The notes under the pieces: generated by a model
What the model was told of the DNA's origin: nothing
Database searches by the model: none
What the model saw: the letters and a program-made list of their open reading frames with translations, nothing else
In this document: positions 27,769 through 57,300 of the stretch, piece after piece
Layout: each line of letters begins with the position of its first letter
How positions within the stretch are numbered: the first letter of the stretch is position 1
Position numbers and translations under genes: made by a program
NCBI GenBank assembly: GCA_043228905.1
Contig: JBHGNT010000002.1
Coordinates: 21,638,001 to 21,702,000 of the forward strand
Length of the DNA: 64,000 nt
Reading direction: 5' to 3'
From: Azolla caroliniana
Lineage: Eukaryota; Plantae; Polypodiophyta

Positions 27769-27812
<44 letters not shown>

Positions 27813-28192
27813 CAGTCGTTACACCAATCATGCTATACAAAGGTAATAACAACAACTATGATCGTCATCACACTGTTTGCCCTAGGTCACATTTATACTA
27901 ATATGACATTAGGACTATTTACAGATATAGCCCCAATGGGCTCTCAGAAACATATCTACATATGTGTCCCTTCGTCCGATGAGAGGGTCTCACCGGGCCT
28001 GCGACATCCGGTTCTCACCAGGTCTTCCTTGCCGGGTACTCGTCATCTGGTTCTCACCGGTTCTTCCGATGTCGGGCCTGCAACATCTGGCTCTCACCGG
28101 GTCTTCCTTGCCGGGTACTCGTCATCCGGTTCTCACCGGGTCTTCCGATGCCGGACCTTCGTATCCCATCCGGAGGGACTGAGATCCTAACA
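22812..28192 (-). mobile_element. Near full-length Copia-B element: 5' LTR 27492-28192, PBS-Met 27477-27488, gag-pol 27460-23473 (disrupted), PPT, 3' LTR 22812-23462, TSD TAAAA
   Basis: Perfect 5-bp TSD; domain order gag-PR-INT-RT-RH; several stops and frameshifts. Confidence 0.95.
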
Positions 28193-28374
28193 TAAAATAG
28201 TATCTTCACTATTATTGTTTTATGTCATGTGTGAAGAACCACACTCAATTTTGGACATTCCTTGCAATTTTCACACCGTTGTCGAAAATCTTCATGACAT
28301 CCGCCCCCACCAAACAGCACGTCGTGTGGTACGTGCCAAGAAGAGAGAGTGAGAGATTTCGGCTATGGTGATTC

Positions 28375-32873: not shown

Positions 32874-35800
32874 TGTCGCGTTGTTACGCGCGTGCGTGGA
32901 GAAGGGCGGAACCACGGGGGTCTTGGACTAAGGAGAAGGGGAGAAGGAATAGGACTTCGGAATGGAGCTTAGCACAAGAAGAGAAAGAATGAACAAGAGG
33001 AAGATGGAGGCCAAATGCTCAACAAGATATATTAGAACCGAAAACCGATTACAAAATGGCGGCCGCGTAGGCCGCACCAAACGACTATGATAAACCCGAA
33101 ACCCTAATCCGACGAAGAAGAAAAGAAACCCTAACCCTAAAACGAAATGGTATACCTCACTCACACTCAAAATAAGGCAACCCCCACAATGGTGCTCTTC
33201 CTCTCCCTTTATAGCACAAGGAGGGAAGACCGTTACATAAAGGTGCTACAAAATATCCCCTTTCAATCAATGGGGATATTTCCCTTGATTTTAGGGGAGG
33301 TGGGAAGGATGGGTCTTAACTCCCACCTCTACACGAACTACTATGTACCTATCTCTCTCTCTCACGTGGATGTGCGCGCAAAAGCACATCACCTTTACAC
33401 TTTACAAATCCTAAGGTGCATTTCTAGCACCATACTTATCACTATCGATAAATAGAAATACAACATGTTGATGTGCAACGTCGCACATCGCGGGTTTGCT
33501 TGCTTCGCTCGGTTTTCCGCCTATGGACGAAAATCTTCACGACATCCGCCCCCACCTAACCGCACATCCACCGGTATGTGCCAAAAGGGGAACAAAACGC
33601 GAGATTTTCGGCCGAGGCGGCCAACCGAGCCCTTGACAACCTCGTGGGCTTGCCCGGCTTAGTCTTCCACTTCGAGCAAGTCCACCCCGTCCACACGAAC
33701 CACCGTCGCCTTCCGGCCCACCATCTCCGCCGAATGGTCTCGAACCGTCGGCTCCATCCGATCCGCCACACTTGACGACGTTCGCCGAGTCGTGGCCTCC
33801 ACCCGATCCGCCACGTCCACCGTGTTTCCTCGAACCACCGTCTACATCCGGACCGCCGTTTCCGATGCCCGCGCTTTCTTCCCCGATCGGTCCTCCCGAA
33901 CGCCGTTGCCGACCCTTTGTCCGCCTCGCATATCCTCCGGATCCGCCTTTTTCGTGCCGCGCACCTCGTCGTGCCGACTCTTCTCGCTCCGCGCTTGCCT
34001 TCCGTAGGCTTTCCCCGTACGTCGGTGTCGTCCTCCGAATGCGTGCTCGTGCTTCGGTCCTTCGATGACCCCATCACGCATTTTTCGCCTTCCCCTTGCT
34101 TGCCGTGCTCTCTCGCCGTAGAGCATACCATCGTTCCCGTGCTCGTCGCTTGGCCCTCATGCGGCCGTATTGCACGATTCGCATTCCGCTCCTCTTCGCG
34201 TACCCTTTCGGAAAGGTACCCTTCTTCCCCGATCTCCGTTTCGCTCGGAGGAACACCCTCTTGGCCCTCTTGGCCCGCTCGACCGCACACATCCTTCGTG
34301 ATGTCGTGTTCGTTCTTTTGGGCGCATACATCTTCGTTCTCCGCGACCTCCCGTATGCCTCTCTCGGTGCCTTCATCCGTTGTGGCCTTCGTCCCCTCGC
34401 CGCCACCGTCCGCCACTCTTGGTCTCACGTCGGCACTCGCGCCGATCGCCGGAGTCTCTATAGCCGGTGTGGAGGATCCCTCTCGGGTCTTATCTTCGTG
34501 GCCGCCGGTCTTAGCCTCTCCGTAGGCCACCTCTTCCCACCAATCTTCCCTAGCATCGTGCCGGGTCTCGTCGTCGCCGCCTTCCTCCTCGTATTCGCCT
34601 CTCGAAGGCGTGATCCGACCGTCATCTTCGGTCGCTCGATGTGGCTCCTTCGTAGGCATGCTTGTGTCTTGGCCCTCCATCGGCCGTATTGCATGCATCT
34701 CGTCTCGCTCTTCCGCCGTAGACCCGACCTTCGTGTCGGTCTTCTCCTCCTTTGTCGCCGTAGCCCGTTCCGACACGGGCTCGCCGTCTTGGACCCACCC
34801 GTCCACCATCTCGTACCGGATATCCGTTCCGGTAACCTCGTACGCTCCGGCCTCCGACTCCTCGCCGCCACCCGCCGTCTCTCCGGTCTTATGTTGATCC
34901 GCAACCGCCGTAGCCTCTAGAGTGGGTATGGAGGGTCTCGTTTGTTTCCGTTTTTCCCCTGAACCATGGTCGTCGTGCCCGGTTAGCCTCCATCTCGCGC
35001 TTACCGGCTCCCATCGTAACCGTAACCGTAACCGGCCAATCGGTCTTGCCGGCTTCCTTCGGTTTGGGCCCGGTTCGCCGGCCCTTACTCCCTTCTTCTT
35101 CCGTGCTGTATTCCGGTCGGGTCGGTTCCCGACTCTCTCCTCGTTTCCGCTCCGGTCCTTTCCGTCGGACCCACCGTATACGCCCATTCCGGGCCCCGCA
35201 TACTCGTCTTCGTATGCGCTCTTTCCGGGCCTCACCTCCTCACGGTCATCGCCCACCTCTTCGGTCTCACGTTGGCATTCGAGCACAACCGCCGAAGTCT
35301 CCGGCCCCGGTGTCAAGGGGTCTTGCCTCCGTCCGCTCCAATCTTCCTTCTCGTTTCCGTTGCCCGCCTTGCCGCCGTCACCTCCCGTCGCACTAAGCCT
35401 CATGCCGGCACTCGGGCCGGCCATTGGAGCCTCTAGGATTGGTGTGGGTAAGGACCCGGCACCGCCGCTTGTTGTCTCCGTAGCCGCTTTCGTTCGGACG
35501 TCGTTGTTCGCGGCTCCCCCATCTCCGATTCCGTAAGCCTCTAGTATGCTTGCCACCACCTCTTCTTCGCCGTTCTCCGCGTCATTTTGTTTGCCCGCCT
35601 TGCCGCCGCCACCGCCCGTCGTTCTAGGTCTCGTGCCGGCACTCGGGCCGACCGCCGAAGCCTCTAGGGCCGGTGTGTGGAAGGTCGCGGCACCACCGCT
35701 CGCCTCCTCTCCGCTCGATGTTTTGGGCCGCCGTGCCCCGAATCTTTCGCCCACTTTCGAAGTGGCGCTCTCCGCTTTGTAGTCACCGGCCTCATCCTTG

Positions 35801-38522
35801 GCCGTCCATTCGCCGCAAGACGAGAGGGTTGCTCGCTCCGCACCCTCTCCCATGTCGTCGTCGTTTCGGTTGCCCGCCTTGCCGCCGCCACCGTCCGTCA
35901 CTCTAGGCCTCTCGCCGGCTCTCGGGCCGGGCGCCGGAGTCTCTAGGACCGGTGTGTGGAAGGTCGCGACACCACCACTCCTCTCGTCCGTAGCCACCTC
36001 CATTCGGACATCGTCGTCCGTGGCTACCCCGTCTTCGGTTTCGCAAGCATCGAGAATGCTTGCCGCCGCCTCTTCTTCACCGGTCTCGTCCTCATCTCGG
36101 TTGTCCGCCTTGCCGCCGCCACCGTCCGTAGCTCTAGGTCTCGTGTCGGCACTCGGGCCGACCGCCGAAGCCTCTAGGGCCGGTGTGTCGAAGGTCGCGA
36201 CACCATCGCTCGTCTCGTCTTCCTCCTCCATTTCGCAAGCCTCGAGTATGCTCGCGAAATCCTCGTAGAACGTTTCGGGCAACCGCGTCCCGAAACTTCC
36301 GCCCACTCTCGAAGTGGCGTCCATCGCTCCGTAGATATCGGCCTCGTCCATGGCCGTTCTTTTTCCCCGAGATGAGACGGTCGCTTGCTCCGCACCTTCT
36401 CTCGTGTCGACGCTGTGGTCGCCCGCCTTGCCACCGCCACCGCCTTTCACCATAGGTCTTACGCGGGCACTCGGGCCGGCCGCCGTGATCTCTAGGAATG
36501 ACGCGTGTAAGGTCACGGGACCGCCGCTCGTCGATGTAATGTCCGTAGCCACCTCCGCTCGGACGTCGTTGTCCGTGGCTGCCCCGCCTCCGTATATGCA
36601 AGCATCGGTTATGCTTGCCGCCGCCTCTTCCGCGGTCTCCTTACCGTTGTCTCGGTTGCCCGCCTTGCCGCCGCCACCGTTCTTTTCCCTCGGTCTCACG
36701 CGGGCGCTCGGGCCGGCCGCCGGGGTCTCTTGAACCGGTGCGTGGAAGGTTACGGTACCGCCGCTTGTCTCCTCCGTACTCGATGATTCGGGCCACCATG
36801 TCCCGAAACCGCCATGTCCACTCGAATCGGCGATCGCCGCCTCACCGTCCCCGACCTCGTCCTCGGTCGTTCTTTTCCCCCATGTCGAGAGGGCGGCTCG
36901 CTCCGCACCCTCTCCCGTGGTACCGATGTACCATTCTCTTTCGGCCTCCGCATAGGCCCCGTCCTCCATGTGTGAGGAAGCTCCTTCCTCCGCGTCCTCC
37001 GATTCGCTCGGGCCCGACCCCGCAATAAGCCATTCTTCGCCTTCGATTTTCGCCATTACGAGCCCGCACGCCTCCCGTATTAGCGCTTGTAGGTCGGGCC
37101 CCTCCAAACCGGTTCGCGATGAGCTCTCGTCCGGCGGCATGGCGTAGTCGGTCGTCGCTCTCTCTTCTCCCCCGCTCGCGGGCCGTGTTGTGGCCGACCG
37201 CCTCGCCTCATGTTGCCAACACACCCATTCCACTTCGGGCCACTCCTCGGTGAGACCATGCGCCCCATAATCGTCTTGAAGCTCGAACATGATGTCCATC
37301 CTCTCCTCATGATGGACCGTCTCCAAAAATAGGAGGACTTTGTCCGCCCCCACCGATCTTCGTTCCCACTCCGAGAGTTGAGAGAAACGACGCTCGAACT
37401 CTCGGAATGCCTCCATTGCGCTCCGGTGGTGCCTCGCCGACGCCACCCACCGATCGAACTCTCGCCGACCTCTTACCTCCGATTCCGCGCACCCGTATGC
37501 CTCCATTAGAGCCCCTTCAAAGGACTCCCACGATTCGTGAGCTTCTTGGAGCTCCTTGACCTCCTCGTACTTTGATGCGGCCACCGCTCGACGAAAGAAC
37601 TCTAGCCTCGTCGCTTCGTCCACGCCCATCCTCGTCATTTCCGCATCGTAGGCTCTCAAAAATTTTGGGACCTCCTTCCCATCGAACCGGCCGACTAGAC
37701 GGACCACCCTTTCGACCGCTTGTTGAGCCGCCTCTCGCCTCGCCCTCTTCCGTCCGGCGTCCATCAAGATCTTTGTCATCATCTCCTCGAAGTCGAAGCC
37801 TTCCTCCATCTCTTTCTCCCTTGCCGCCCTTCACGTCGAGTTCACCAAAGATGTCGCGTTGTTACGCGCGTGCGTGGAGAAGGGCGGAACCACGGGGGTC
37901 TTGGACTAAGGAGAAGGGGAGAAGGAATAGGACTTCGGAATGGAGCTTAGCACAAGAAGAGAAAGAATGAACAAGAGGAAGATGGAGGCCAAATGCTCAA
38001 CAAGATATATTAGAACCGAAAACCGATTACAAAATGGCGGCCGCGTAGGCCGCACCAAACGACTATGATAAACCCGAAACCCTAATCCGACGAAGAAGAA
38101 AAGAAACCCTAACCCTAAAACGAAATGGTATACCTCACTCACACTCAAAATAAGGCAACCCCCACAATGGTGCTCTTCCTCTCCCTTTATAGCACAAGGA
38201 GGGAAGACCGTTACATAAAGGTGCTACAAAATATCCCCTTTCAATCAATGGGGATATTTCCCTTGATTTTAGGGGAGGTGGGAAGGATGGGTCTTAACTC
38301 CCACCTCTACACGAACTACTATGTACCTATCTCTCTCTCTCACGTGGATGTGCGCGCAAAAGCACATCACCTTTACACTTTACAAATCCTAAGGTGCATT
38401 TCTAGCACCATACTTATCACTATCGATAAATAGAAATACAACATGTTGATGTGCAACGTCGCACATCGCGGGTTTGCTTGCTTCGCTCGGTTTTCCGCCT
38501 ATGGACGAAAATCTTCACGACA
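32874..38522 (-). mobile_element. Very young pol-less Trp-primed LTR element: 671-bp LTRs 37852-38522 and 32874-33544, PBS 37832-37847, PPT 33545-33556, TSD GCGT
   Basis: The LTRs have equal length and no mismatch was seen by eye (identical ORF-track translations at offset 4978). The 4-bp TSD is perfect. Confidence 0.96.
33556..37809 (-). CDS. 1417-aa protein: Gag capsid-like N-terminus, acidic Gly/Ala/Thr-rich tandem repeats, Arg/Trp-rich C-terminus
   Basis: Uninterrupted ORF from just after the PBS to the PPT. The N-terminal about 200 aa align to gag 17430-18797 (RFDGK, FERRFSQLS, KVLLFL, GLTEEW). No zinc knuckle, protease, RT or integrase. Confidence 0.88.
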   Translation of the reverse strand: MEEGFDFEEMMTKILMDAGRKRARREAAQQAVERVVRLVGRFDGKEVPKFLRAYDAEMTRMGVDEATRLEFFRRAVAASKYEEVKELQEAHESWESFEGALMEAYGCAESEVRGRREFDRWVASARHHRSAMEAFREFERRFSQLSEWERRSVGADKVLLFLETVHHEERMDIMFELQDDYGAHGLTEEWPEVEWVCWQHEARRSATTRPASGGEERATTDYAMPPDESSSRTGLEGPDLQALIREACGLVMAKIEGEEWLIAGSGPSESEDAEEGASSHMEDGAYAEAEREWYIGTTGEGAERAALSTWGKRTTEDEVGDGEAAIADSSGHGGFGTWWPESSSTEETSGGTVTFHAPVQETPAAGPSARVRPREKNGGGGKAGNRDNGKETAEEAAASITDACIYGGGAATDNDVRAEVATDITSTSGGPVTLHASFLEITAAGPSARVRPMVKGGGGGKAGDHSVDTREGAEQATVSSRGKRTAMDEADIYGAMDATSRVGGSFGTRLPETFYEDFASILEACEMEEEDETSDGVATFDTPALEASAVGPSADTRPRATDGGGGKADNRDEDETGEEEAAASILDACETEDGVATDDDVRMEVATDERSGGVATFHTPVLETPAPGPRAGERPRVTDGGGGKAGNRNDDDMGEGAERATLSSCGEWTAKDEAGDYKAESATSKVGERFGARRPKTSSGEEASGGAATFHTPALEASAVGPSAGTRPRTTGGGGGKAGKQNDAENGEEEVVASILEAYGIGDGGAANNDVRTKAATETTSGGAGSLPTPILEAPMAGPSAGMRLSATGGDGGKAGNGNEKEDWSGRRQDPLTPGPETSAVVLECQRETEEVGDDREEVRPGKSAYEDEYAGPGMGVYGGSDGKDRSGNEERVGNRPDRNTARKKKGVRAGEPGPNRRKPARPIGRLRLRLRWEPVSARWRLTGHDDHGSGEKRKQTRPSIPTLEATAVADQHKTGETAGGGEESEAGAYEVTGTDIRYEMVDGWVQDGEPVSERATATKEEKTDTKVGSTAEERDEMHAIRPMEGQDTSMPTKEPHRATEDDGRITPSRGEYEEEGGDDETRHDAREDWWEEVAYGEAKTGGHEDKTREGSSTPAIETPAIGASADVRPRVADGGGEGTKATTDEGTERGIREVAENEDVCAQKNEHDITKDVCGRAGQEGQEGVPPSETEIGEEGYLSERVREEERNANRAIRPHEGQATSTGTMVCSTAREHGKQGEGEKCVMGSSKDRSTSTHSEDDTDVRGKPTEGKRGARRVGTTRCAARKRRIRRICEADKGSATAFGRTDRGRKRGHRKRRSGCRRWFEETRWTWRIGWRPRLGERRQVWRIGWSRRFETIRRRWWAGRRRWFVWTGWTCSKWKTKPGKPTRLSRARLAASAENLAFCSPFGTYRWMCG

Positions 38523-39405: not shown

Positions 39406-42400
39406 TGTTGAGCGAGCAAGCTCAACCGGATCCGGATCGTCTAAATAAGCCTCAGCCGGATCGACATCTGGAAGGATGAGTCGGATCGGTATCCGAATGA
39501 TATCTGGAAACAACTGGCCGGATCGGAGAGCCGGATTCGATCGGGAACCGGAAGCCTAGTAGTAGCCTAGACTACTAGGTAATCATTGTCTCGTAGTTAG
39601 TGTCAGTCGCAGGTATGAGCATTGAAGTACCTGTCAGTACTTCTGTTAGTCCTTTATGGACTTGTATAAATAGTGTTGTTTAGCACGTTGTGTGTACAAT
39701 GTTTTAGAATTATTTTTTTAATAGAGTTTATGTTCTGCTCTTTGTCTCTCCCGTATATACTCTCTGTGTTAAGCTTGTCCATTAAACCTTCATCTCATTT
39801 TTTGTTGCTATCCGGCTGAGCCGATTCTGTCTGACGCTTTTGCACATTAACATTCACATGGTAACAGAGCGCAAGGGTTGAGAACCTCTGCAACCGACAC
39901 TTGCTTCCATTGACGAACCCTAGAACCCGCTAACAACAGATACAGAGAAGATATGGACAGAGGAATGGCGAGTTCACTTCCAACAGAGAAGCTCAACCAG
40001 AGCAACTATGCTTCCTGGTCATATAAAATGCACCAGTACCTGTTGGGGCATGGATATTGGAGCTTCGTGGAAGGAATAAATGAAGTAGCATCGGAGCCGT
40101 CACACAAAGACTTCCCGGTATGCGAGTAAGGAGCGAGTCGGGTACTGTATTGTCTCGCGTCCGGTGTGCATGATCAGATGCTCAGCTACATCAAGGATGC
40201 AAAGACGTCGAAGGAGGCCTGGGAAAATCTATGGAAGATTTTCGCCGCAAGTACCACAGCCCGTAAGATTTTCGCCGAAGGAGGCCTGAGACATGTCGGT
40301 TACGGACTACACCACCAAGATAAAGGAGATTTGCGACGCACTCAGGTCCATCAATGTGACGATGGACGAAGACGAGATGGTACAAATCTGCTTCGGTGGT
40401 CTAGCGCAAAGGTATGGGCAAATCCGGACAGCGATCTGCAGCCGGGAGAAACCACCGTCCTTCTTCGACTTGTAATCGATGTTGATGGTCGAAGAAAACC
40501 ACGCGACCGGGTCAAGGACCACTCAATCGAACGGTCGGATGTTGTACACGGAGACAGATCGGCCCGATGGACGTGGTGGACGAGGTGGGTCGGCACGCAA
40601 TGGAGGCGACCGACAAGAGCAGGACTGGAGGCACAGAGGTGGTGCCGATAGCAATTCCAGACTCTCCACAAGCAGGGGGAGTCAAAGCGGCGCCGGGAAC
40701 CGGCAAAGGAAGGCCGACACGGAATGCGAGTACTGTGGAAAAAAGGGCCACAGGGAAAGCGAGTGTTAGAAGAAGCATGCCGATTCAGAAAAATCCGGAT
40801 ATGACAAAACCAGTCGGGAGAACCAGCAAAGCTCGCACTACGCGGAAGGATCGGAAGGATCCGGAACCAGGAAAACCGGTAAAGGGCCAGCCTTCGTGAT
40901 GAAGCACAAGGCTAACTCGATGAAGAAGACTACTTCTGGATCGGAGGAAGTATGGTACGTTGATTCCGGAGCGTCCAACCACATGACAAGCCATGAAGAG
41001 TGGTTCTCTTCTTTGGAGAAACCGGAACAACCGGGGATTGTCGAAACCGGAGACGACACCCCTCACCCGATTGTGCATGTCGGAGAAGTTCCTTTAAGCC
41101 ATGTCGGACAAAAGGGGAAGCTGATGAACGTACTACACATTCCGACAATCACGAAGAACCCGGTGTCGGTCGGACAAATCGTCGACCAGGGGATGCAAAT
41201 GCAGTTTACACGCACCTCGGGTGCTTCATCGAGGAAGAGGGCCGGATAATTGCGCAAGGGCGCAGAGACGAGAGGATGTTCATCCTCAACACTAATGATG
41301 TCGGCACCGCTATGTTTGCAAAAGGGCAGAAGCTCGAATCGGACATCGACCTATGGCACAAGCGGATCGGCCACGTCAATTATCGGAGGCTTCAAGACCT
41401 ACAATCGAAACAAGTTGTTTTCGGTTTGCCAAAATTTATCGGCCGGAAGGCCGAAATTTGTGAAGCCTGCCATCCTCGGAAGCAACACCAGCTTCCATTC
41501 TCCACCGAACAAAACCGGAGCCGTAACAAGGTCGATCGAATACATTCAGATGTATGGGGACCGACACAGAATGTTAGTCTTGGCGGGAGTCAGTATTTCA
41601 TCTCCTTCATCGACGACTATAGCCGACACACGTGGATCTACCTCATCGAGAGGAAGAGCGAAGTCTTCGAGTGTTTACGAAACCTTCAAAGCTTGGTTGA
41701 ACGGGAAACAGAGCGGAAGATCAATTGCCTACGGTTAGATGGCGGAAAAGAATACTTTTCTAGCCAATTCAACTGTTATCTGCAGCAGAACGGAATTCGG
41801 AGGGAATTTAGCTGCAGATACACACCGGAAACGGTGTGGACAGAAGGAAGAACCGGTCGATTGTCGACGCGGCAAGGGCAATGCTGGAGGAGAAGAGCAT
41901 GCCCCATTTCTATTGGGTTGAGGCGGTCTGGACGGCCGTCTACATCCAAAACCGGATCGGAGACAAAATGTCAGCACACGAGCTGTATTTCGGGCGCAAG
42001 CCAAATTTGAGACACCTTCGGATATTCGGTAGCATAGCATATGTGCATGTACCGGATAAAAAGCGGAGGTGGTTGGATCCGAAGTCGGAGAAGTGCATCC
42101 TAGTTGGTTACCCGCATGAGCAAAAGGGTTATAAGTGCTATAACCCCTAGACTAAGCAAGTTCGAGTAAGCCGAGATGTCGAGTTTGATGAGACGGCATC
42201 ATGGTACTCCTTACCGACTCCAACTCCCAACAAAGACCCGATTCCGGAAGATGAGGCTAGTGAGCCCGAGGGGGTCCAGGTACAAGATGAAGTTTTTGGC
42301 ACTCTAGAAGAGAGCCCAATTTCATTCCGGTTGAGTGGACCGAATGAGCGGCTGGGTCGAGATGACCAGTCGGATGAAGAACTAGCGAGTAGTGGAGACT

Positions 42401-44401
42401 CTGTCATGCTCTCTTTGCACAAGGAACCGAGGAGACGGTTCACACACAAAGAGAAGGGGAAGAAGAAGATGTCGGAATACGAAACCGACAACATTGAGTC
42501 GGATCAGAGCAACTCTGACTCCGGAAAGGATGAAGGCGGATCTTCGGGAACGAAGTCCGAACAGGCCAAGAAGGACCCCAAACCGGGTGATGACAAGTTA
42601 CATCGGTCTTCCCGCCAGAAGAACCCCGTTACGCGGTACGGATACAATGAGTACATGGCGCATCACTATACATACATGACCAAGGTGGCGGAAGTGCGTG
42701 AGCTGGAGAGCTACGCAGAAGCAGCAAAGGACGCAAATTGGTGTGCCGCTATGGAGGAAGAAATGCGGGCACTAGATGCCAACGACACATGGGACCTCGT
42801 TGACCCTCCCCGACACTATAAAACCAATCGGTTGCAAATGGGTGTACAAGGTAAAGTACAATGCCGACAGTTCGGTTAACCGGTACAAGGCTTGGTTAGT
42901 GGAGAAGGGATACACACAGACCCACGGAATCGATTACGACGAGACCTTCGTCCCAGTAGCGAAGATGACGACGGTTCGTGTGGTACTGGCAGTTGTTGCA
43001 GCAAGGGGGTGGCATCTTCACCAGATGGACATGAGGAATGTGTTTCTTCAAGGTGACCTTGAAGAACGGGTCTATATGATCCAACCTCTCGGCTTTTAGT
43101 CGGAGATGAACAAGTCGGCGGTGTGCGGGCCTAAGAAGTCGCTCTACGGTCTGAAACAAGCCCCCCGAGCTTGGAATGCGAAGATCACGCACCAATTGCA
43201 TAAGCTGGGGTTTGTGACATCTAAATCCGACTCGTCATTGTTCATCCGGCAAGGTCCGGACAGTCCGGTTTGCATCTTACTTTATGTTCATGATTTAGTC
43301 ATCACCGAACCCGGACTCAATGAAATTGGCTGAGTCAAGTCCTAGTTGTCGGACGCATTTGAAATTAAGGACCTGGGGGACCTTCATTATTTTCTTGGGA
43401 TCGAGGTGATCCGAACCCCCGATGGCATATTGCTCTCACAACGTACAAGCATCACAACCGGGATCACTCCACCGGGTATCACCCACGACGGGAAGATTAC
43501 GGGAGGTATGACGACCAACCTCGGCAAGGGTACCGCAACAAAAAGAACTTTAATAAAAAACGGCATTTCAAAAATGGGAGCCACCCACGTGAACCGGAAA
43601 AAGGCGCCTCAAGCAGCCAACCGGACCAGAGCCCCGCGGTTACCACAAGTCCTCCACTGGGTACAGGAAACAATGCCGAATCCAGCAACACCCGGAAAGC
43701 ATATTGTTATTACTGCCGCCATGAAGGACATTATAGTAATCAATGTCTGGCAAAGAGCTATGATAAACGACCGGCAGTAAACATGGTAGTCGCCAAAGTC
43801 GCAGACCTACAACAGGTCACCACAAGGTCGAAGGGCAAGACAACGGAATAGGAGACACAAGAGGCCATCCGGAAACAGGCGACGGAATAGGTGAAAAAGG
43901 CAAACGAGTGAAACGTAGCAGAACTCGCGCAGCAATAGGAGAACACCGAGGAGCTCGCCGGTGGCAGTCAGTCCAAAAACGCGACATGGTAGGCATTGCC
44001 GAAATGCCAGATCACGGTGCCGTTAGGACGACTCTTGCAACTAGTACCAAGATTCACAGAAGAACTCAAGCCCGGCATTACGACAGACGGCACACCACCG
44101 GCTCCGGCATTCTTCTCAAATCCGAAGGAAGGACCAACCGTGGTGGACACCAACAGTCCGGCAATTACGACCATTGTGAAAGGGAAAGAACTCCCCGGCA
44201 CGATAATAGACGGAGGCTCCGGCGTTAATGTAATCAGCCTCCGGACGTGCGATGCTCTTGGAATCCAAGAGTGGGAGCCATGTCCGTTCTGGCTCCGAAT
44301 GGCGGACACAAGCTCGGTACAACCGACAAGATTAATACGGAACTTGGAAGTAACCATCGGGGGCCACACATTCCGAATCTCATCCGTAGTTCTCCAGTTG
44401 C

Positions 44402-47400
44402 TGTTATTGCTAGGGCCGGACAATAACCTAACACAGGGTGTCCACTTAAGACACGTCACCAAAGGGTGGTACGGCATAATGACTTACGGCACAACGCTTA
44501 ATTAGACCTTAATCGATTACTTAGCCATCCATAATTAACACGCGTAAGATATAACAATAAATACATAACGGTAATCAACACTTGAAGATTAGGACAATAC
44601 GCTTTATTAATTATCCGCTCCTGATTACATTGTAACCAGGCCTTTATATAGGTCTCCTGTGCGAAATACAAAACGGTGCCAAATGGCACCTTTACGGAAT
44701 CGTTCCGGATCCAGATCGGCATACCGATTCCGGTCCGTCCGTCCACATCTTTTTATATAATAATATGTATATATTAAGACTACTAATTACAATAGTTCCC
44801 GAATAACTATTCCTTTCACACTCTGGTTTGGACCTCCTTAAGCCTTCTTTGTCGGCCGGTAACACATGGCACGCCCGTGGGACAGTACCTTGTATGTCGA
44901 ACACACTATCCGGCCCTTTTACGCTTTCTCCAAAATGTCCAGAATGCTTTGCTCCAAAATTTCCAATGGCTCGTCAGGAATCTGTTGTTGCTGCTGTGGC
45001 TGCTCCTGTTGTTCCGTTTGTGGCTGTGGTTGTTGCTCCGTTTGTGGTTGTGGCTCCGTTTGTCGCTCTGGCACCGGTTTTTCCGTCGTTGGTTCCTCTG
45101 TCGGAGTTTTCTGTGGTTGACTGACCCCGGCCTGTTCCCCCTCCGGTCTTTGCACCGGCGACGGTTCCTCATCACTAAGGTTGACCGTTGCTGCCTTTCG
45201 CGCTTTTTCTTCCCGGAGCTGGGACCGCTCATAGCTTTCGAACTGTATTTGAGCCTCCAGTCAATCATCGTCCAGTTGAGCTATGAGCTGCCGAACCTGC
45301 ACCAATCGTTCATCCGCCAGGGCTGTGAAATCTTCCGCCAGCTCGTCCATGATAGTGATGAAGTTCTTTGAGGTCAGCATATAGCAGTCGTCGCCCTCCT
45401 TTCGCCGGTTTTCAACGTCCACCCTAAGCAATTGGAGTTCCGCGGTATTCTGCGCCCATTTTGCCCACCAACGCACAGAGCTGACATCAATCAAGCTTTT
45501 GGTTTTAGTGAGCCATGACCAGAGGATGCACTGGATCCGTTCGGCTCCCATATGTGATTTATATTTTGCGGCTTGTCACTCTTCCTTCAACTGCTTGATG
45601 ATCCGAACCGTGTCCGCCTCCTGCTCCCTATAATGAAACAATTGAGTTTGATAGGTGGTTTGCAACCTTTGTAGTACCATTGTCGCTCTTTCCTTGTCTT
45701 CATGGTTCTGTTTGTGGAGCTCCATCCGGTCATTCGCCGCTTCCTCCAATAGCCTGGAACTTTCCACTCGTTCTTCGACGAGTGCCGTTGTGGCCTTATC
45801 AACCTCTTGTCGGAGCTCGGCCATCCGTTGCTGATGCTCCGTCTCCAGCTGCTTGTAGTCCCGATGCAGATGATCGAAATCATCGGTCTTATACTTCAGC
45901 CTTCGGTTTATTTGACGGCGCGCGCGGTCCTCCCGGTCCTTCTGTTGCCGGAGCTCTTCCTTCAGCCGCTCGATTTCCATTTCCGCCATCCGTAGCAGCT
46001 TGTCTTTTTCCTGCAGCACTTTCTCTTTTTCCTCCTTCAGCCGGTCGTAAGCATGATGTCCTTTACGTAGGTTTTCCTCTGCCCGGCGAAGGTTCTCAGT
46101 AGTCTTTCTTAATTCTTCTTCGGCCGCCTTCTTCAAGTCGCGTTCGCGGCTCCATAATGCTTCTTGTCCGACTAGCTCATCTCGTAATTCCGCAAGCTCT
46201 TGGGCTTGCGCCGCCTCTTTCTCCTAGACAGTTTGTGTCTCCGGGATCTTATTCTTCTGTACATCAAGCGGAGTCACCGGTGCTTGGACCTGCGTTGCGG
46301 TTAAGGCCATTTTGGCCATATCTCCTGTGATCCGATCCAAGTCTTGTTCCAGGCACCGGATCAATGATCGGGCTGTCTCCAGTTCATCGGTTGTGACGAG
46401 CAACCGTTCCGTTTGCGCTACCGGAGCCATTGGTTGTCGGTGCACTGTTGTTGCGCTTGCACGGAGAGTTGGTTGATGGGTTGACTCGCTGGTGGCTAGT
46501 CCCGCCTTTCTACGTCAAGTTGCACTTCTGGTTCTGCCAGCTGACCACTTTGTCGTTCCGGCTCTGCGTGTGTTTCGTCTAGTCGCCCCTTGTGTGCTTG
46601 TTCTTGGCCAGCTGGGGCGGTTGGCCTTTGTATCTCCGGCTCTTGGGTGACGGGGCTTGCCGGTGTTGCCTGTTGTGCCGGCGTCTGAGGTCTTTGCCGG
46701 TTTTCCTTTGGTGTTGCCGACTCGACTTCCGGTGTTGGAGGTTTTTGCCGGTGTACTTCCGTCTCCGGAGGTTGCTCCACGACGAGTGCCGAAGGTTCTT
46801 GGTCTGCCAACTCTGGTTCCGGTGTCGGTAAAGTATCCGACTCCTCGTCCTCCGGTCCTCCTGGAGTGTCGTTACTGCTGCGATAGTTCGTATGCGCGCT
46901 GTAACCCCCTTCCGAATCCGATTCCAGCACTGAAAATGCTTCGGATTCGCCGTCTCTTCCGGCCAAGGCCTGGAGAAGAGTTTCCGCTTCCCGGAGGCTG
47001 CTTAAGCTGATTCCTACGTCCGGGTAGGCGTTTTGTTGTAGACGGAGCGACTCCTCCGCCACTTTCCGGATCACTTTGGAAAATGATCGATCCGTTCGGA
47101 TTTCTTCCGCTGCTTGTTGGAAAGCCTCTCGCCGCCGTCTCCGTTCAGCAAGTCTTCATGCTCTCTCCGTAACCGGGTCGTCTGTTGGCCTAGTCATCCA
47201 TTCCTATCGTTGTTCACTGCGATAATGTAGGAATCATGGTCGCCAAAAACTGTGTTATTGCTAGGGCCGGACAACAGCATAACACAGGGTGTCCACTTAA
47301 GACACATCACCAAAGGGTGGTACGGCAGAATGACTTACGACACAACACTTAATTAGACCTTAATCGATTACTTAGCCATCCGTAATTAACACGCGTAAGA

Positions 47401-47715
47401 TATAACAATAAATACAGAACGGTAATCAACACTTGAAGATTAAGACAATACGCTTTATTAATTATCCGCTCCTGATTACATTGTAACCGGGCCTTTATAT
47501 AGGTCTCCGGTGCAAAATACAAAACGGTGCCAAACAACACCTTTACGGAATCGTTCCAGATCCGGATCGGCATACCGATTCCGGTCCGTCCGTCCACATC
47601 TTTTTATATAATAATATGTATATATTAAGACTACTAATTACAACAGTTCCCGAATAACTATTCCTTTCACACTCTGGTTTGGACCTCCTTAAGCCTTCTT
47701 TGTCGGCCGGTAACA
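44402..47715 (-). mobile_element. Non-autonomous 3.3-kb derivative of the same family: LTRs 47253-47715 and 44402-44864, TSD GTTGC
   Basis: The LTRs are reverse-complement homologues of 54401-54858 and the 5-bp TSD is perfect. The interior is a decayed ORF homologous to 52530-54346. Confidence 0.93.
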
Positions 47716-47800
47716 GTTGCAGGCTCAAGGAGCGTACCCATTATTGCGGGGACGCCCGTGGTTAAAGACGGCACATATCAAGTAGAACTGGAGGAGGAAT

Positions 47801-50800
47801 TTGATTACGTTCCGGCGGGGAAAAGCGAAGGTACAAGTACCAATGCAACCAAGGAAGGGCACCGGCAAGGATCTGACACCGTTATATGCGGAGTGTGTCA
47901 ATATGCTGGAAGGATTAGCAGACGAAGAAGAAGAGCAGTACTTGCTGGAGAACCCGAAGATTGTACCCCTATTCGAAGTTTACGTCGTCAAAGCGGTATC
48001 ACCCTACTTACTGCAACCGGACGAGAACGAAGCGGAACCGGATAAAGAAGCAATCCGGGAGTTACGGCATGCGCAGGAGGCGTTGGAAAGGGAAATGGTT
48101 GTATCCCAGCACGTAAAAGCGTCCCAATTAGAAGAGGTAAACCTAGGAACGACGAAGGAGGCAAAACCGGTGCACATCGCCAAAGAAATGAATGCAAAGA
48201 ACAAAACGGCGATAATTACACTCCTCAACGAGTTTCGCGACTTCTTTGCCTGGTCGTACGAGGATATGAGAGGCCTGGATCCTCAGTTGTATCAGCACCA
48301 GATACATCTGAGTAAAGACGCCAAGCCGGTAGCACAGCATCGGTACCGGATGAACCCAAACTACGCCGCCAAAGTCGAGGAGGAGATCGACAAATTTCTG
48401 AGGGTCGGCTTCATCCGTCCCGTAAAGAAATCTACATGGCTGAGCACGATCGTAGTCGTACCGAAAAAGAACAGCAAAATTCGAGTTTGTGTCGACTACC
48501 AGAAGCTCAATGCGACTACGGTAACGGATACATTTCGACTTCCGTTTACGGATGGAGTTTTGGATGTCGTCGCCGGCCATGAAGTCTGCAATTTCTTAGA
48601 CAGATTCAGCGGGTATAATCAGATCCGAATGCACCCTCAGGATCAAGAGAAAACGGCTTTCATCACCGAATGGGGAGTGTTTGTTGCAGTGGTGATGATG
48701 TTCAGGCTGAAAATGGCACCAGCAACATTCCAACGGATCATCATGGAGATCTTTGGCAAATACATACCGGCTTTTATGCAGGTGTTCCTTGACGACTTCG
48801 CCGTCTATAGTAGAGAAGAAGATCATTTGCAACATCTCAAACTATGTCTAGAGAAGTGTAGGGCGTACCGGCTAAGCCTGAATCCGGCGAAGTGTGTATT
48901 TGGAGTCTCTAGCGGAACGCTACTAGGGCATATAGTGAGCAAGGAAGGCATTGCCGTAGATCCGGACAAAGTGAAAGCAATCCTAGAAGCACCGGCAATG
49001 GCAACGGCAACGGCAAAGGCATTGAGCCGGTTCCTAGGACAAATCCGCTGGCATAGCCGTATGCTCCGATATTTGTTAGACCTGGCTACACCTCTGCATG
49101 CGGCAATACATCGAACACCGTTCCAATGGACCGACATCGAAGACAAGGCGTACTAGGCACTAAAGGTGTTATTGTCACAAGCACCGGTAGTGCAGCCTCC
49201 GGATTGGAGTAAAGAGTTTCATGTGTTCGTGGACGCTTCTGATTTCACAATCAGTAGCACGCTCATGCAGCTTACCGAGCCAAGGTGGTACCGGCCAGTG
49301 TACTATGCCAGCCAGAAGCTATCCCAAGCGGAACGAAATTATTCTACCACGGAAAGGGAAGCTTTAGGAATGATCTACAGTGTAACAAAATTCAGGCATT
49401 ATTTATTGGGAAGAAAGTTCTCCTTCCATGTAGATCATTCGGCACTCGTCTACCTAGTATCCAAAGCGTCACTTACCGGTAAGTTGGCCCGGTGGACTTT
49501 GTTGTTACAAGAGTTCAAATTCGAGATATTCCACCGACCCGGCATACAGCATGCGGTAGCAAATTACCTAAGCATGCGGAGACAGGTGACGGAGTACCGG
49601 ACGAGTTTCCGGATGCAGAGCTTTTTCGAGTCACCACGGAAATGGCAACAGATGAAACGGTGGCACAAGAATATAATTGGCTAACTAATATGCACCAGTT
49701 TCTGAGTACCGGATTGCCTCCGGAGGAGATGAACCAGGACGAGAGAAAACGCCTGGCGGTACAGAGCCGGCACTTCTGTTTATTACAGGACACGTTATAC
49801 CACAAAGGTGCGGACGGTATCTGGCAACGAGCGGTGCGCAGCGACGAGAAGGAGGTAATACTACGGGAGGCACATTGCGGAGTCACCGGAGGCCATTATG
49901 CTGGAGATTCAACGACAAGGAAAGTATGGCAAAGTGGCCTATGGTTGCCGACCACATTGAAAGATGTGGTCCGGTACGCGAAGGAGTGTGATCTATGCCA
50001 ACGAATGGGTCAGCCAACGGAAAAAGCTCGGATGCCACACCAGCCAGTCCTACCACTAGAACCATTCCAGAAATGGGGGCTGGATTTTGTCGAGCCATTT
50101 AAACCACCGGTAATGAGAACTAGAAACCGGTACGTGATCGTCGCGACGGATTACTGCACTAAGTGGGTGGAAGCGAAAGCCCTACGAGACAACACCGCGG
50201 CGTCAACGGCAAAATTCTTATACGAATGCATTTGGTGCCGGTACGGATGCCCCATAGAGCTAATAAGTGACCAAGGAGGGCACTTTCTTGCACAGGTGGT
50301 AGAAAGTTTGACGACGTTCTATGCGGTAGTACATAAACGAAGCACACCGTACTATCCGCAAGCAAATGGGTTACTAGCTGAGTCGACGAACAAAACGCTC
50401 CAGAATATCCTCCGGAAGATCGTCAATGAAAATCGGGCAGATTGGGACACGAAGCTGCACAGTGCGCTCTGGGCTTACCGGACAGTGTACAAAACAAGCA
50501 TCCGAACAACACTGTTCCAGTTAGCATTCGGATTAGAGGTTGTCATGCCGGTCGAGTTCGAGGTACCAAGCTTACGAATTCAAATTCGGGAACGATTAAA
50601 CGAAAAGCAATCGGAGGCAATTCGGTTAAAGGCTCTGTGTGAACTGGAAGAACACCGACTGGTGAGCATTATGCACCTGGAATTGGAACAACGAAGACAG
50701 AAAGCATTTGTAGATCGGCACCGGAAGGGAAACGAAAAGATGTTCGGAACCGGCAAGCCAGTACTCGTGTTCCAGACCCGGATGGGCAAAATGCTAGGTA

Positions 50801-51147
50801 AACTACAGTTTAGATGGACCGGACCGTACTGGATCACACGCGAGTTCAATGGGTCCTACCAGTTGGGGACACTTGCCGGAGAAGTGTTGGGCAAATGGGT
50901 CAACAAATTTAGACTAAAATCATACAAAGGACCTATGCCTAAGAACCCATTTGAACGAAAGGCCACCACCGAATCAGACGTCAGCAGGCCAACCATAACG
51001 GCAACCGATGAAGCCGACGGCTACCACCAAGCCAGTAAGGAGGAGCATGAGCCAGCAACCGAGGAGAGCAAAACGATGGCAAACCGTCAAGAGGCCAGCA
51101 AGTTGCACGTTTCAGGTAAAGGTCCGACAGGACCAGAGAAAAATTAA
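47801..51147 (+). pseudogene. Gypsy pol (RT, RNase H, integrase) with one stop at 49154-49156 and one frameshift at about 49570
   Basis: ORFs 47801-49156, 49166-49684 and 49492-51147 carry canonical RT, RNase H, HHCC, DDE and WTGPY motifs. Confidence 0.95.
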
Positions 51148-51275: not shown

Positions 51276-54200
51276 ATGAATAGGACATTAAACCACCGCC
51301 ACATGGCACACAATGCTATTATAGTACACGACATGCACATGCGGAGGCTTGAAAAAGGCGCCAAGATGCAGAGAGAAAAAACCCCACGCATCGAGACCTT
51401 CTCCTATTGCGAACCAAGGAGAACAGACGCAGAGCGACACATGAAGATAAATCGTAGAGAGCTCGCACACAGAGAACCCCCTCCCTCAGAACTTTCTCTC
51501 GCACACTCTCCCCACCATCAAACCTCGCCAACGATCTCCGACCTCGACGCAGAAATGGACTGCCAAACGTTGTCTGAAGCCGCCAAGAAATGGTTACGGC
51601 AGCACGGTCTAGAGGGTTTCTTAACGATCATGGAGGCGGCGCCACACAAGGAGGCCGAAAAGATGATAATAGAAATCGACACAGAGGTGATCACGGAGGA
51701 AGCGATCCGTGCATTAATAGGCCTTCCGGAGGGAGGTATCTACACGATCGACAATCCTACCTCCGAGCAACTCATCAAATATTTCGGTGAGTACTCTCTA
51801 GCCAACAAGGGCTATAGGACACAGGGCGGCGAAGATATGCTATTCCGTGAAATTGCCCGTGTGCTCCACGAGTTCGGCCACGTGTACCCTCGACCCCCCG
51901 TCATGCCTCAGAACCGAGCAGGCTTGATCATCGCAACGTACGAAGGGGTCAAGGTAGATTGGCTGGTGCTGATCGCCGACGAGCTGTGTACGACCATTGA
52001 TATAGTAAGAGGAAAGGACTGCAAGGAAGGCCGAAAAATATGGCATGCGGTGACACAATGGCTCACCCTGTTGGCGCCACCGGTCGAGCCCGTCCAAACC
52101 AAGAAGCGGGGAAGAGCAACGGACGGCACCCCGAAACCTGCTTCGAAACGACAACAACTGTTGGCCTCCAAGGCCACTAAGGGGAAGACTGCCGAAGCAG
52201 AGAAGGCGGCAAAGGAGCGCGCCAGCCGGAAGCGGCCGACGGATGCAAGTGAGGAGACACCGGCACGGCCCTTAAAGAGCCCACTCCACCGACCGGTGCA
52301 ACAGGAAACGGACACCTTGGCGGCAAGAATGAATGCCGGTACTCAGGCGGAAGAGATGGAGGAAGAACCCACGGAGCACCTCCAGCGGCGGCCGGTGAAG
52401 AGCACCGCGGAATCAGCCGGGAAGCGTTCGGAGCCACAGAAGGATGGAACGCCCGCAACTCCCGCTGAGCAACCCACGCCAAGGGAGGCACCGGAACCGG
52501 TTCGGATGGAACCGGTCACAGAAGTCCCGGCACAACAGGCAGCACCGGCAAGCCCCATCACCCAAGGGTCGGATATACAAAGGCCAACCGCCCCAGCCGG
52601 CCAAGAACAAGCAAACAAGGGGCGTCTAGCCGAAACACACTCAGAGCCAGAACGGCAAAGTGGTCAGCTGGCAGAACCAGAAGCGCAACTCGACGCAGAA
52701 AGGACCAGCCACCGGCGAGTGAACCCATCAGCCAACTCTGCGCTCAAGCACAACAATAGTGCACTTGTAGCCAATGGTTCCGGTGGATAGGCGACCAAAT
52801 TGCCGGAGTAGTCAGATGCATAGAGGCGGAGGAAAGAGCGCAAACGGAACGGTTGCTCGTCAGAACCGATGAACTGGAGACGGCCCGGTCAAGGATCCGG
52901 TGCCTGGAACAAGACTTGGATCGGATCACAGGAGATATGGCCAAAATGGCCTTAACCGCAACGCAGATCCAAGCACCAGTGACTCCGATTGATGTACAGA
53001 AGAATAAGACCCCGGAGACACAAACTGTCCCGGAGAAAGATGCGGAGCAAGCCCAAGAGCTTGCGGAATTACGAGATGAGCTCGCCGCACAAGAAGCTTT
53101 ACGGAGCCGCGAACGCGACTTGAAGAAGGCGGTCGAAGAAGAATTAAGAAAGACTGCTGAGAACCTTCGCCGGGCAGAGGAAAACCTGCGTAAAGGACAT
53201 CACGCTTACGACCGGCTGAAGGAGGAAAAGGAGAAATTGATGCAAGAAAAAGACAAGCTGCAACGGATGGAGGAAACGGAAATCGAGAGGCTGAAGGAAG
53301 AGCTCCGGCAACAAAAGGACCGGGAGGACCGTGCGCGCCGGTTGATCAACCAAAGGCTGAAGCAGAAAACCGATGATTTCGATCATCTGTATCGGGACTA
53401 CAAGCAGCTGGAGATGGAGCATAAGCAACAATAGGAATGGATGGCCGAGCTCTGGCAAGAAGTTGATAGGGCCACAACGGCACTCGCCGAAGAACCAGTG
53501 GAAAGTTCCAGGCTATTGGAGGAAACGGCGAATGACCGGATGGAGCTCCACAAACAGAACCATGCAGACAAGGAAAGAGCGACAATGGTACTACAGAGGT
53601 TGCAAACAACCTATCAAAATCAATTGTCGCATTATAGGGAGCAGGAGGCGAACACGGTTCGGATCATCAAGCAATTGAAGGAAGAGCGACAAGCCGCAGA
53701 AAATAAATCACAGATGGGAGCCGAACGAATCCAGTGCATCCTCCAGTCATGGCTCACTAAGACCAAAAGCTTGATTGATGACAGCTCTGTGCGTTGGTGG
53801 GCGAAATGGGCGCAGAATACGACGGAACTCCAATTGCTTAGGGCGGACGTGGAAAACCAGCGAAAGAAGGGCGACGACTATTATACGCTAACCTCGGAGG
53901 ACTTCACCGCCATAAGGGATGAGCTGGCGGAAGATTTCAGAGCCCTGGCGGATGAACAATTGGTGCAGGTCCGGCAACTCGTAGCTCAACTGGACGATGA
54001 TCGGTTGGAGGCTCAAATACAGTTCGAAAGCTATGAGCGGACCCGGTTCCGAGAAGAAAAAGAGCGAAAGGTGGCCATGGTCAACCTTAGTGATGAGGAA
54101 CCGTCGCCGGTGCAAGGACTGGAGGGGGAACAGGCCAGGGTCAGTAAGCCATAGACGACTCCGACGGAGTAACCAACGAAGGAAACGCCAATGCCGGAGC

Positions 54201-54346
54201 GACAAACAGAGCCACAGCCACAAACGGAGCAGCAGCCTCAGCCACAAACGGAACAACAACAGCAGCCACATCAACAACAACAGGTTCCCGACGAGCCATT
54301 GGAAATTTTGGAGCAAAGCATTCTGGACATTTTGGACGAAGCGTAA
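51276..54346 (+). pseudogene. Large sense-strand 3' extra ORF: globular N-terminus, Pro/Glu linker, long coiled coil, Gln/Pro tail; now broken by two stops and a frameshift
   Basis: Collinear ORFs 51276-52790, 52853-53434 and 53441-54154, plus a tail ending ILDILDEA* at 54346. Confidence 0.8.
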
Positions 54347-57300
54347 AAGGGTCGGATAATGGGTTCAACGTACAAGGTACTGTCCCACGGGCGTGCCATG
54401 TGTTACCAGTTGGCAAGAAGGTTTAAGGAGGTCCAAACCAGAGTGTGAAAGGAATAGTTATTCGGGAACTGTTGTAATTAGTAGTCTTAATATATATTAT
54501 TATATAAGAAGATGTGGACGGACAAACCGGAATCGGTATGCCGATCCGGATCCGGAACGATCCCGTAAAGGTGCCAGTTGGCACCGTTTTGTATTTCGCA
54601 CCGGAGACCTATATAAAGGCCCGGTTACAATGTAATCGGGAGCGGATAATTAATAAAGCTTATTGTCTTAATCTTCCAGTGTTGATTACTATTCTGTATT
54701 CATTGTTATATCTTACGCGTGTTACTTATGGATGGCTAAGTAACCAATTAAGGTCTAATTAAGCATTGTGTCGTAAATCATTCTGCCGTACCACCCTTTG
54801 GTAAAGTGTCTTTAGTGGACACCCTGTGTTAGGCTGTTGTCCGACCCTAGCAATAACAGGTAGCACGGTTGTTGCGTGGAGCAGCCAAGAGTGGCTCTGT
54901 CGAGCATTTAGGTTGAATACCGGGGCGCTACCCATGCCACCTGTGAATCCATCTGGCTTCGGCGACTGCTGCAAGATCTGTGAATCAAGGTACAGACCCC
55001 GATCTTGATCTACTGCGACAACATGAGCAGCATTCAGCTCGCCAAGAACCCCGTATTCCATGCTCGGACAAAACAAATAGAAGTGCACTATCACTTTGTA
55101 CGTGAGCGGGTCCAGAGCGGTGAAGTTGAACTTCGGTATGTTTAGACGGATCGGTAGGTTGTCGACATCTTCACCAAACCGCTCGGATCGGACAAGTTGC
55201 AGCACTTCACTGAAATGCTTGGTGTTCAGCATCTCAACGTGCCGCACTTGAGGGGGAGAAAAGGAAAGTGAATGGAGGGCACCGAACAAAGAGCCTGAGA
55301 GGAAGAAAGAACCAACAAAGGGGGAGACAAGAGGAGAAAGGAAGTCGAGTCGACGAAGGAAGTCGGCACATCCGAACAAGTGGAAAAAAGTGGCAGCGGC
55401 TGCAAAGTCAAGAAGGACAGAGCCGACCGGAAGAAAAAGGCCAAGACCCGGACGTGGTTCGATGTGGTGAAGGGCCTGAAACTAGAAGACGAGTTGGAGA
55501 ACACCGTTTCGAACAAGAGCTAGAACGAATTGAAGGAAACTGATTCGGTTCAAGATTCGAAGAAGCCGGATCAACTAAAGGCCAAACGGACACGGAAGTC
55601 GACGCCAACACGAAGGAACCGATGGGTCGACAAGCATCGGAGTCACAGCAGCGAGGGAGCTGAAATGGGCCTATTGAGCAAACAAGCCGACCGAGGAAGT
55701 CAAAGTGCGCAGAACCAGAAGGCTCGCGGCAAACAGGACCGGACCGGACGAGGAGCGCAAGCAAGACAAGCCGACCAAGGAAGTCGAAGTGCGCAGACCC
55801 AGAAGGGTCGCGACAAACAAGACCGGACCGGACGAGGAGCGCAAGCAAGGCGGAGCAACGCCAGAAGGAGCCGTGTAGAAGAACCGGCTGCCGCGGACAA
55901 TAACATCACGATCCGACCTCAAGTTGAGCTTGAGGGGGAGTGTTGAGCGAGCATGCTCAACCGGATCCGGATCGACTGAATAAGCCTGAGCTAGATCGGC
56001 ATCCGGAAGGATGAGCCGGATCCGTATCCGGATAATATCCGGAAACAACCAGCCGGATCGAAGAGCTGGATTCAAGCAGGAACTGGAAGCCTAGTAGTAG
56101 CCTAGTAGTAGCCTAGACTACTAGGTAATCATTGTCTCATAGTTAGTGCCAGTCGCACGTATGAGCATTGAAGTACCTGTCAGTACTTCTGTTAGTCCTT
56201 TATGGACTTGTATAAATAGTGTTGTTTAGCATGTTGTGTGTACAAAGTTTTAGAGTTATTTTTTTAATAGAGTTTATGTTCTGCTCTCTCTGTCTCTCCC
56301 GTATATACTCTCTGTGTTAAGCTTCTCCATTAAACCTTCATCTCATTTTCTATTGCTATCCGGCTGAGCCGGTTCTGTCTAACACTTCCGCACATTAATA
56401 TATGTATATGTATGTATGTATATATGTCTATCTTAAATACTTTCTCGCATACGCTAGTAAAATATCGACTCCTTCCAGTCTAGGACCCCCGCGGTTCCCC
56501 TTCATTTCACGAACACGCGAGGATTTCCCCGACAACGCTCAGAGGTTAGAATTAAAATTTGAAAAATCCTCATGATCTTCATGGTGAAGGCTTCATATTG
56601 ACATGAGGAATTTCCCAGTGAGATGATCTGTTGACTTGGTTTACGTTGCTTTCACCGAAATTCACATAATTTTGTGTCCCACGCTTGGAATTCCAAACCG
56701 AACACTCCATGCAATTCTAGTGGCAAAGTCTTTGTGTCAAATACTAGAACAAGGATTTGCACAAAATAACAACATAAATATTATATTAAGATTTTGTAAG
56801 CAATAGTAAGTTTAAGAGAGTGAAAGTATATCGAGAAAATTCTCAGCTCTGTTACATGGAGTGAAGAAGAGATACAAGAAGAGCAGGAAGAAGATAGGAC
56901 TAAACGGAGAAAAGATAATGAGTAGAGCTTTCAGGAATATCATCATCCCTTGTCGTCGTTGATCTCACACACCCTCTTGATTCACAACCCTAGCTCTCTC
57001 TTCATATTTCGGCATAACTTCCATGTCTCTCTCTTCCCCCCCACCCAAACAAATTAGTGTGTGTTTTTTTATTTTAGCATACACCATGCTTTTTTTTTCA
57101 TTTGCATGCTCTACTTGAGTCTTATAAAAAACTTAATTGTAATATCCACATCCTCTTCCATATCCCCATTTTCTTTTGATCATTTTTTAAATATTCTTAT
57201 TTCTACATTTTCTTTTTTAATGTCTTCAAATTTGCACATCCCATTTTCAAGAAACCAAAATCTTTCTTTATTAATGACATGACAACTTTTATTACATTGA

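Follow-up and report, generated by a model that had tools for sequence, protein, structure and literature searches.

Retroviruses and LTR retrotransposons are generally regarded as alike in priming their second DNA strand from a polypurine tract (PPT). The 64-kb stretch of DNA that was analysed here as a whole (the window) holds two copies of an element in which the last nucleotides of a tRNA stand just before the 3' LTR, at the place where the PPT should be. This raises the question of what starts the plus strand of such an element. The anatomy of the site, its conservation, its match to a mature tRNA and the covariation of a hairpin within it were established by sequence comparison. The element appears to represent a new variant of LTR retrotransposon replication, for which tRNA priming of the second strand is the likely mechanism.

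Nested copies with a split tRNA copy at the 3' junction

The window is made up of a nest of LTR retrotransposons. Between 39406 and 56401 the nesting is three levels deep: one element (copy A) is inserted in the protease (PR) region of a second (copy B), which itself lies in the reverse transcriptase (RT) region of a copia element with LTRs at about 39406-39853 and 55941-56401. Copy B lacks its 5' end and 5' LTR, and its degraded gag-pol (43446-51147, + strand; the start is approximate and was set from the sequence), which encodes PR, RT, RNase H (RH) and integrase (IN), is split by copy A at 44402-47715. Downstream of pol an extra ORF in sense orientation (51555-54154, +) is present in three coiled-coil-like pieces; it matched no Pfam family and is kept across families at 26-72% identity. 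Copy B ends in a TG...CA 3' LTR (54401-54858, +) with a TATA-like box about 208 nt in. As a previous, sequence-only reading of the window had it, RT, RNase H, integrase, the extra ORF and the TATA-like box all read on the + strand.

Copy A (47715-44402, - strand) is an internal-deletion derivative that retains a remnant of the gag N-terminus (46619-47197, -; 43% identity to residues 1-182 of P0122); from there a deletion extends into the extra ORF, whose 3' half is kept. Its 5' LTR (47253-47715, -) and 3' LTR (44402-44864, -) are 95.9% identical, and the target site duplication (TSD) that had been ascribed to it is the 5-bp GTTGC at 44397-44401 and 47716-47720. The short 9-mer resembling a primer binding site (PBS) that had been noticed 7 nt inside the 5' LTR is indeed there, as TGGCGACCA at 47237-47245 (-). 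The order PR-RT-RH-IN between LTRs, the TSD and a tRNA-type PBS just inside the 5' LTR are those of Ty3/gypsy LTR retrotransposons. Contigs spanning the insertion site of copy A and lacking this copy were found in three of the four sequencing runs described below, which indicates that other copies of the host element exist without copy A. In run X1 the contig depth of the copy A internal region beside the 3' LTR was about that of the LTR. Elsewhere in the window, at 32874-38522, lies a very young element with 671-bp LTRs that are 100% identical and a 1424-aa ORF (33556-37830, -) without a Pfam match. It has a G-rich purine tract, and the patterns used matched no tRNA-type PBS in it.

The sequence preceding the 3' LTR of copy B was compared with the complete 76-nt tRNA-Arg(UCU), including CCA, that is present in a gapped metagenome locus (L002). 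It proved to be a tRNA copy in two parts. A T-arm block (54359-54368, +), in which eight of ten nucleotides equal tRNA positions ~49-58 and the remaining two are G-to-A changes, is followed by a 13-nt insert (54369-54381, +) that sits between tRNA positions 58 and 59 and contains a 4-bp hairpin (stem 54370-54373 with 54377-54380). Next comes the 17-mer GTCCCACGGGCGTGCCA (54382-54398, +), which equals the last 18 nt of the mature tRNA including CCA, minus one base 11 nt from the end, and a 2-nt spacer, TG (54399-54400, +), separates the CCA from the TG of the 3' LTR. In copy A the T-arm block, insert and 17-mer occupy 44867-44906 (-), with the 17-mer at 44867-44883, again 2 nt from the 3' LTR (44864-44402). 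The claim that both independently inserted copies have the 17-mer and its 2-nt spacer before the 3' LTR was therefore correct. The near-exact match to tRNA-Arg with a one-base gap was likewise borne out, whereas the T-arm block and the hairpin insert had been overlooked.

A purine tract adjoining the 3' LTR, already reported as missing, is absent from this family. Within the 30 nt before the LTR, purine runs reach 4 nt at most in the two window copies; at the 31 sites counted the longest run measures 3-6 nt in every case. Ordinary purine tracts stand beside the LTRs in three other element families of the window.

When gapped sites were compared with the L002 tRNA, the insert was usually 13 nt long and was placed where a standard 18-nt PBS ends. 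The T-arm block matched at 7 or more of its ten positions in 25 of 26 distinct gapped sites vs none of 71 distinct 18-mer control sites. Over 27 distinct sequences of the insert hairpin 91.7% of the cells pair, and three of the four pairs vary on both sides (23 cells). The paired share and the covariation score were matched by none of 500 shuffles; two of five covariation measures were not above shuffles (107/500 and 172/500). The T-stem, read in cis on the tRNA-matching strand, showed no compensatory change. This is expected if its partner is an unchanging tRNA; the insert hairpin, by contrast, covaries. Hairpin wobbles occur on the sense and on the antisense strand alike, so that their direction does not reveal the strand that folds or pairs. 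At the 3' site searches with ARAGORN and Rfam gave no match, and both an acceptor 5' strand and a tRNA fold are lacking. For the minus-strand site together with the 3' 30 nt of the tRNA a duplex of 27 paired nt is predicted, with one bulged tRNA base and the hairpin, forming a three-way junction. Its predicted energy was -45 to -58 kcal/mol in all seven sites folded, RNA parameters serving as a proxy for the RNA/DNA hybrid.

Occurrence of the site beyond the window

Metagenomes were scanned with a pattern that allowed the gapped or the ungapped form of the motif. At least 120 stretches were obtained from the 17 of 64 parts scanned and 119 loci were kept; among these motif-selected loci listed, 30 carry the gapped 17-mer (31 sites) and 89 carry 18-mers. 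The 30 gapped loci all come from one assembly series and are often collapsed, and because they were in addition selected by the motif, the share of elements that carry the site cannot be read from them. The spacer is 2 nt in all 31 gapped metagenome sites listed (the pattern allowed 1-3 nt), two of which can also be read as having 4 nt. By blastn 25 LTR starts fall into 12 groups that are not linked to each other, a number that is too high because some relatives are separated by the shortness of the query. The two separate blocks keep their match to the tRNA amid differing flanks and LTRs.

Contigs of four sequencing runs with four organism labels were aligned to positions 54320-54440. The summed contig depth peaks over 54360-54405, at about 750,000 in run X1 vs 20,000-30,000 on the flanks (about 30-fold), bearing in mind that contig depth is not copy number and that overlapping contigs inflate it. 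This spike, with loose ends on both sides, was present in all four runs, which suggests that many other families share the motif alone. The 17-mer in the run contigs has one substitution position (0.5-2% of the depth) and no insertion was listed. It was absent from the viral contigs, in which neither protein nor alignment searches revealed a relative; 11 pattern matches there were taken as chance, all being without RT or integrase. As far as could be sampled, the 3' site is real, conserved and lineage-wide.

A relative was also obtained without using the motif. An integrase search of genome contigs gave two loci, one of which (L152, a 34% integrase fragment) had neither a tRNA-like junction nor LTRs that could be clearly paired on the two sides of the match. 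The other, L151, is a full-length element with intact catalytic motifs, 1.65-kb LTRs that are 93% identical, an imperfect TSD (3/5) and an RT 61% identical to that of the window; it is a single element, present in one copy in its genome. At its 5' junction lies a perfect PBS of 18 nt, separated from the LTR by 2 nt and exactly complementary to iPBS primer 2395 as given in the available text of PMC9245474. At the 3' junction GGGTT and an 8-bp hairpin come first; then follow 18 nt ending in GTGCCA, 14 of which agree with the L002 tRNA, and 2 nt more lead to the TG of the LTR. This site, which differs from the tRNA at four of the 18 positions and has no one-base gap, is not accompanied by a purine tract, the longest purine run within 60 nt being 6. 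With a covariance model of the gapped sites it was the sole match in L151, at a weak score (12.5 bits, E = 0.37) that is level with two chance matches in other loci. Given this score, and as 14-15/18 matches to the tRNA end occur twice elsewhere in the window, the case for the L151 site rests on its position.

Two further features of L151 were observed. Pol and the extra ORF, which are separate in the window family, are fused in one 2444-aa frame (7037-14371). Besides, the contig belongs to a bacterial MAG and at 1-3300 has bacterial-looking genes on one side and AT-rich DNA on the other; it is probably chimeric or a contaminant.

Polarity of the element and priming of the plus strand

Of the twelve 5' junctions catalogued, nine match tRNA-Arg(UCU), over 10, 10, 10, 10, 13, 13, 19, 35 and 76 nt, and three are of the TGGCGACCA type, with spacers of 2-7 nt. 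We take TGGCGACCA to be the end of another tRNA, probably tRNA-Arg(UCG); 31 viral matches to a pattern of this tRNA were left out of the analysis. The base missing from the 3' site is present in the longer 5' tRNA copies, and perfect copies of 19, 35 and 76 nt are confined to 5' junctions. In L002, a small non-autonomous member, the 5' PBS (1190-1265) is the complement of the entire mature tRNA-Arg(UCU) including CCA, and that of L087 carries 35 nt of the same tRNA. These long copies are likely the result of primer read-through and aberrant strand transfer. Since read-through of the minus-strand primer would be expected to leave them at the 5' junction, their position argues that the 5' site is the first-strand PBS. 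L087, as well as L039, is linked to the lineage via an LTR similarity of 76-85%. Two related elements in L062 (at 165 and 2503, minus orientation) have the same sequence after the 5' PBS and a different 10-nt PBS, which suggests a switch of primer tRNA.

The polarity of the element was read from eight of the 30 gapped loci, in which protein matches were present. Pol or the extra ORF lay upstream on the same strand in seven, and gag-PR lay downstream of the LTR and PBS in one. In the control, 4 of the 89 ungapped loci had protein matches, with pol on the other strand in all four, as for a normal PBS. Among 21 LTR starts a strict TATA pattern was found on the pol strand in 7 and on the other strand in none, and a looser pattern in 13 and 1, respectively. 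A sense genome is favoured, and an antisense one made unlikely, by the gag-pol arrangement, the TATA boxes and the long tRNA copies occasionally present at the 5' site. That the 3' site is left uncorrected is weak evidence by itself, because Ty1 and Ty3 do not normally renew their PBS from the tRNA, according to the available text of PMC5371799.

The explanation that we consider probable is that these elements form a plant Ty3/gypsy lineage without a PPT, whose plus strand is started from a second host tRNA annealed to the minus-strand DNA. Because the left LTR boundary is set by the TSD of copy A, the plus-strand primer has to end just 5' of the LTR's TG. The CCA-ended motif is the sole primer candidate just upstream of this TG. 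An annealed host tRNA-Arg(UCU) would explain why both blocks match the tRNA, why a CCA stands at a constant 2 nt from the LTR and why no compensation is seen in cis. In the cycle that we envisage, the genomic RNA would be the gag-pol strand and the minus strand would be primed by a first tRNA at the 5' PBS. After removal of the RNA by RNase H, a stretch complementary to about 27 nt of tRNA-Arg(UCU) would be free on the minus strand. The second tRNA could anneal to this stretch in a three-way junction, leaving one of its bases as a bulge and the hairpin looped out. RT would extend the CCA of this tRNA across the 2-nt spacer into U3, and its removal by RNase H would yield the usual 2-nt overhang for integrase. 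It may be speculated that the bulge and the hairpin, by interrupting the RNA/DNA hybrid, spare the primer from RNase H before it is extended. We incline somewhat to the broader proposal of a high-copy land-plant clade in which the PPT has been replaced by a second host tRNA, both strands are tRNA-primed, often by two tRNA-Arg species, and bulge and hairpin shield the primer of the plus strand against the RNase H that the element encodes.

The main rival, improbable as we judge it, does without a second tRNA: RNA of the element itself would survive RNase H at the 3' site and prime the plus strand, the PPT being replaced by a non-purine sequence in imitation of a tRNA end. This would be the standard pathway with the same 2-nt spacer; in some families the sense RNA can fold as an extended hairpin, and the insert hairpin has sense-strand G-U pairs in four cells. 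However, the self-folds vary among families and are weak, at -13 to -22 kcal/mol, the departures in the T-stem are never compensated, the acceptor 5' strand and tRNA fold sought with ARAGORN and Rfam are lacking, and the tRNA identity of two separated blocks would be left unexplained. We give a smaller chance to a site that binds tRNAs or tRNA fragments for RT docking, packaging, strand transfer or as a silencing decoy, the plus strand being started otherwise. Ty1 and Ty3 have extra tRNA contacts away from the PBS, but these are complementary to the tRNA on the genomic RNA, as far as PMC5371799 was available, whereas the present site is identical to the tRNA. The RNA ends could pair over 10 nt in families with the 5' PBS TGGCACGCCC, yet pair over only a few bases in those with TGGCGACCA or the L151 PBS, and the CCA lies exactly 2 nt from the LTR with no other primer candidate there.

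The sequence-only reading had also proposed a packaged RNA antisense to gag-pol, in which the long site would be the first-strand PBS and the short 5' site would prime the second strand. Read on the minus strand, the long site does have the textbook geometry of a PBS (LTR-CA, 2 nt, TGG), and its gap alone does not exclude this use, in view of the PBS of Ty1 and Ty3 not being rewritten from the tRNA (PMC5371799, same text). Against it stand the TATA-like boxes on the pol strand, the perfect 18-nt PBS of L151 2 nt from its 5' LTR and the confinement of long tRNA copies to 5' junctions. Besides, such an element would equally need two tRNA primers, since the other strand of its 5' junction likewise lacks a purine tract. 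This proposal is accordingly disfavoured and seems to us very improbable. A local rearrangement or assembly artefact, by which an inverted LTR and PBS fragment became joined to the pol of another element, might be suspected from the 5' truncation of copy B and the nest of insertions in the region. It is refuted to the point of having a negligible probability: copy A carries both sites plus a TSD, the polarity is the same in all eight informative loci and in the intact L151, and the motif is present at very high depth in raw-assembly contigs of the four runs.

Priming of the plus strand by a second host tRNA would mean that a natural and abundant lineage exists without PPT priming, and hence that the second-strand step can be re-wired. 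Such a lineage would be a direct system for studying how RT and RNase H select and spare a primer. It would depend on host tRNA at two steps instead of one and be open to tRNA fragments at a second target. In annotation, tools that use PBS and PPT for orienting or validating elements may place it in the wrong orientation or overlook it. No description of a tRNA-like site replacing the PPT was found in the literature searched, a search outside of which lay most subscription papers and the Repbase and REXdb records; the per-element table of PMC6317226 (Additional file 1) may bear on this.

Relation to known elements

Trees of RT-RH-IN were built from 83 sequences and then from about 69, after 15 near-identical Rhodiola rows had been dropped and L151 added; neither REXdb references nor Phygy or Selgy proteins were part of them. 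The window element, P0122-P0124, P0126/L151, P0127 and P0129 form one clade (support 1.0), which groups among proteins of Riccia, Cryptomeria and unnamed sources. The best named RT match was that of Adiantum nelumboides (51%). A non-seed land plant is the probable host. The clade is sister to seed-plant elements without an extra RNase H (support 0.99-1.0), a group that we take to be Athila; the support of the non-seed group itself was 0.99 in one tree vs 0.11 in the other. The extra archaeal-type RNase H (aRH) is absent from the window ORFs and from the intact relatives P0122, P0124 and P0126. The link to Tat/Retand drawn in the sequence-only reading thus holds for the tRNA that is used and fails for the proteins: membership of Tat was rejected for want of the extra RNase H and because the RT-RH-IN phylogeny places the clade outside the aRH-bearing Tat branches.

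By the table in supplementary file 3 of PMC6317226, the part of that source relied on here, the family fits none of Athila, Tat, Phygy and Selgy fully. With Athila it has in common the lack of an extra RNase H, a 5-bp TSD and an extra ORF 3' of pol. The Athila PBS, however, is given there as that of tRNA-Asp (72%), Asn or Ala, whereas here it is that of tRNA-Arg; PF03078 had no match in this family, and the clade, which is distinct from that of the seed plants, groups with proteins of Riccia and Cryptomeria. Tat, Retand and Ogre elements likewise use tRNA-Arg, and the ungapped 18-mer is their kind of PBS (PMC6317226 and PMC11963269, available text), whereas in the present family the motif is gapped, inverted and located at the 3' junction, the extra RNase H is lacking and the extra ORF is in sense orientation. 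Phygy and Selgy are, like this family, non-chromovirus elements of non-seed plants without an extra RNase H; they are set apart, on the descriptions in PMC6317226, by a 4-bp TSD, a tRNA-Trp or tRNA-Ala PBS and the absence of an extra ORF.

Ordinary PPTs are described in the available text of PMC10085805 and PMC5014426. Yeast Ty3, as portrayed in the accessible sections of PMC5371799, resembles the present family in its TG...CA LTRs, its tRNA PBS beside the 5' LTR, its order gag-PR-RT-RH-IN and a primer site just upstream of U3. Its plus strand is primed by a PPT that the element encodes, whereas a tRNA-identical motif without a purine tract occupies this place in the present family. On the genomic RNA of Ty3 the bipartite PBS is the complement of the tRNA and acts in minus-strand synthesis, whereas the bipartite site described here is identical to the tRNA.
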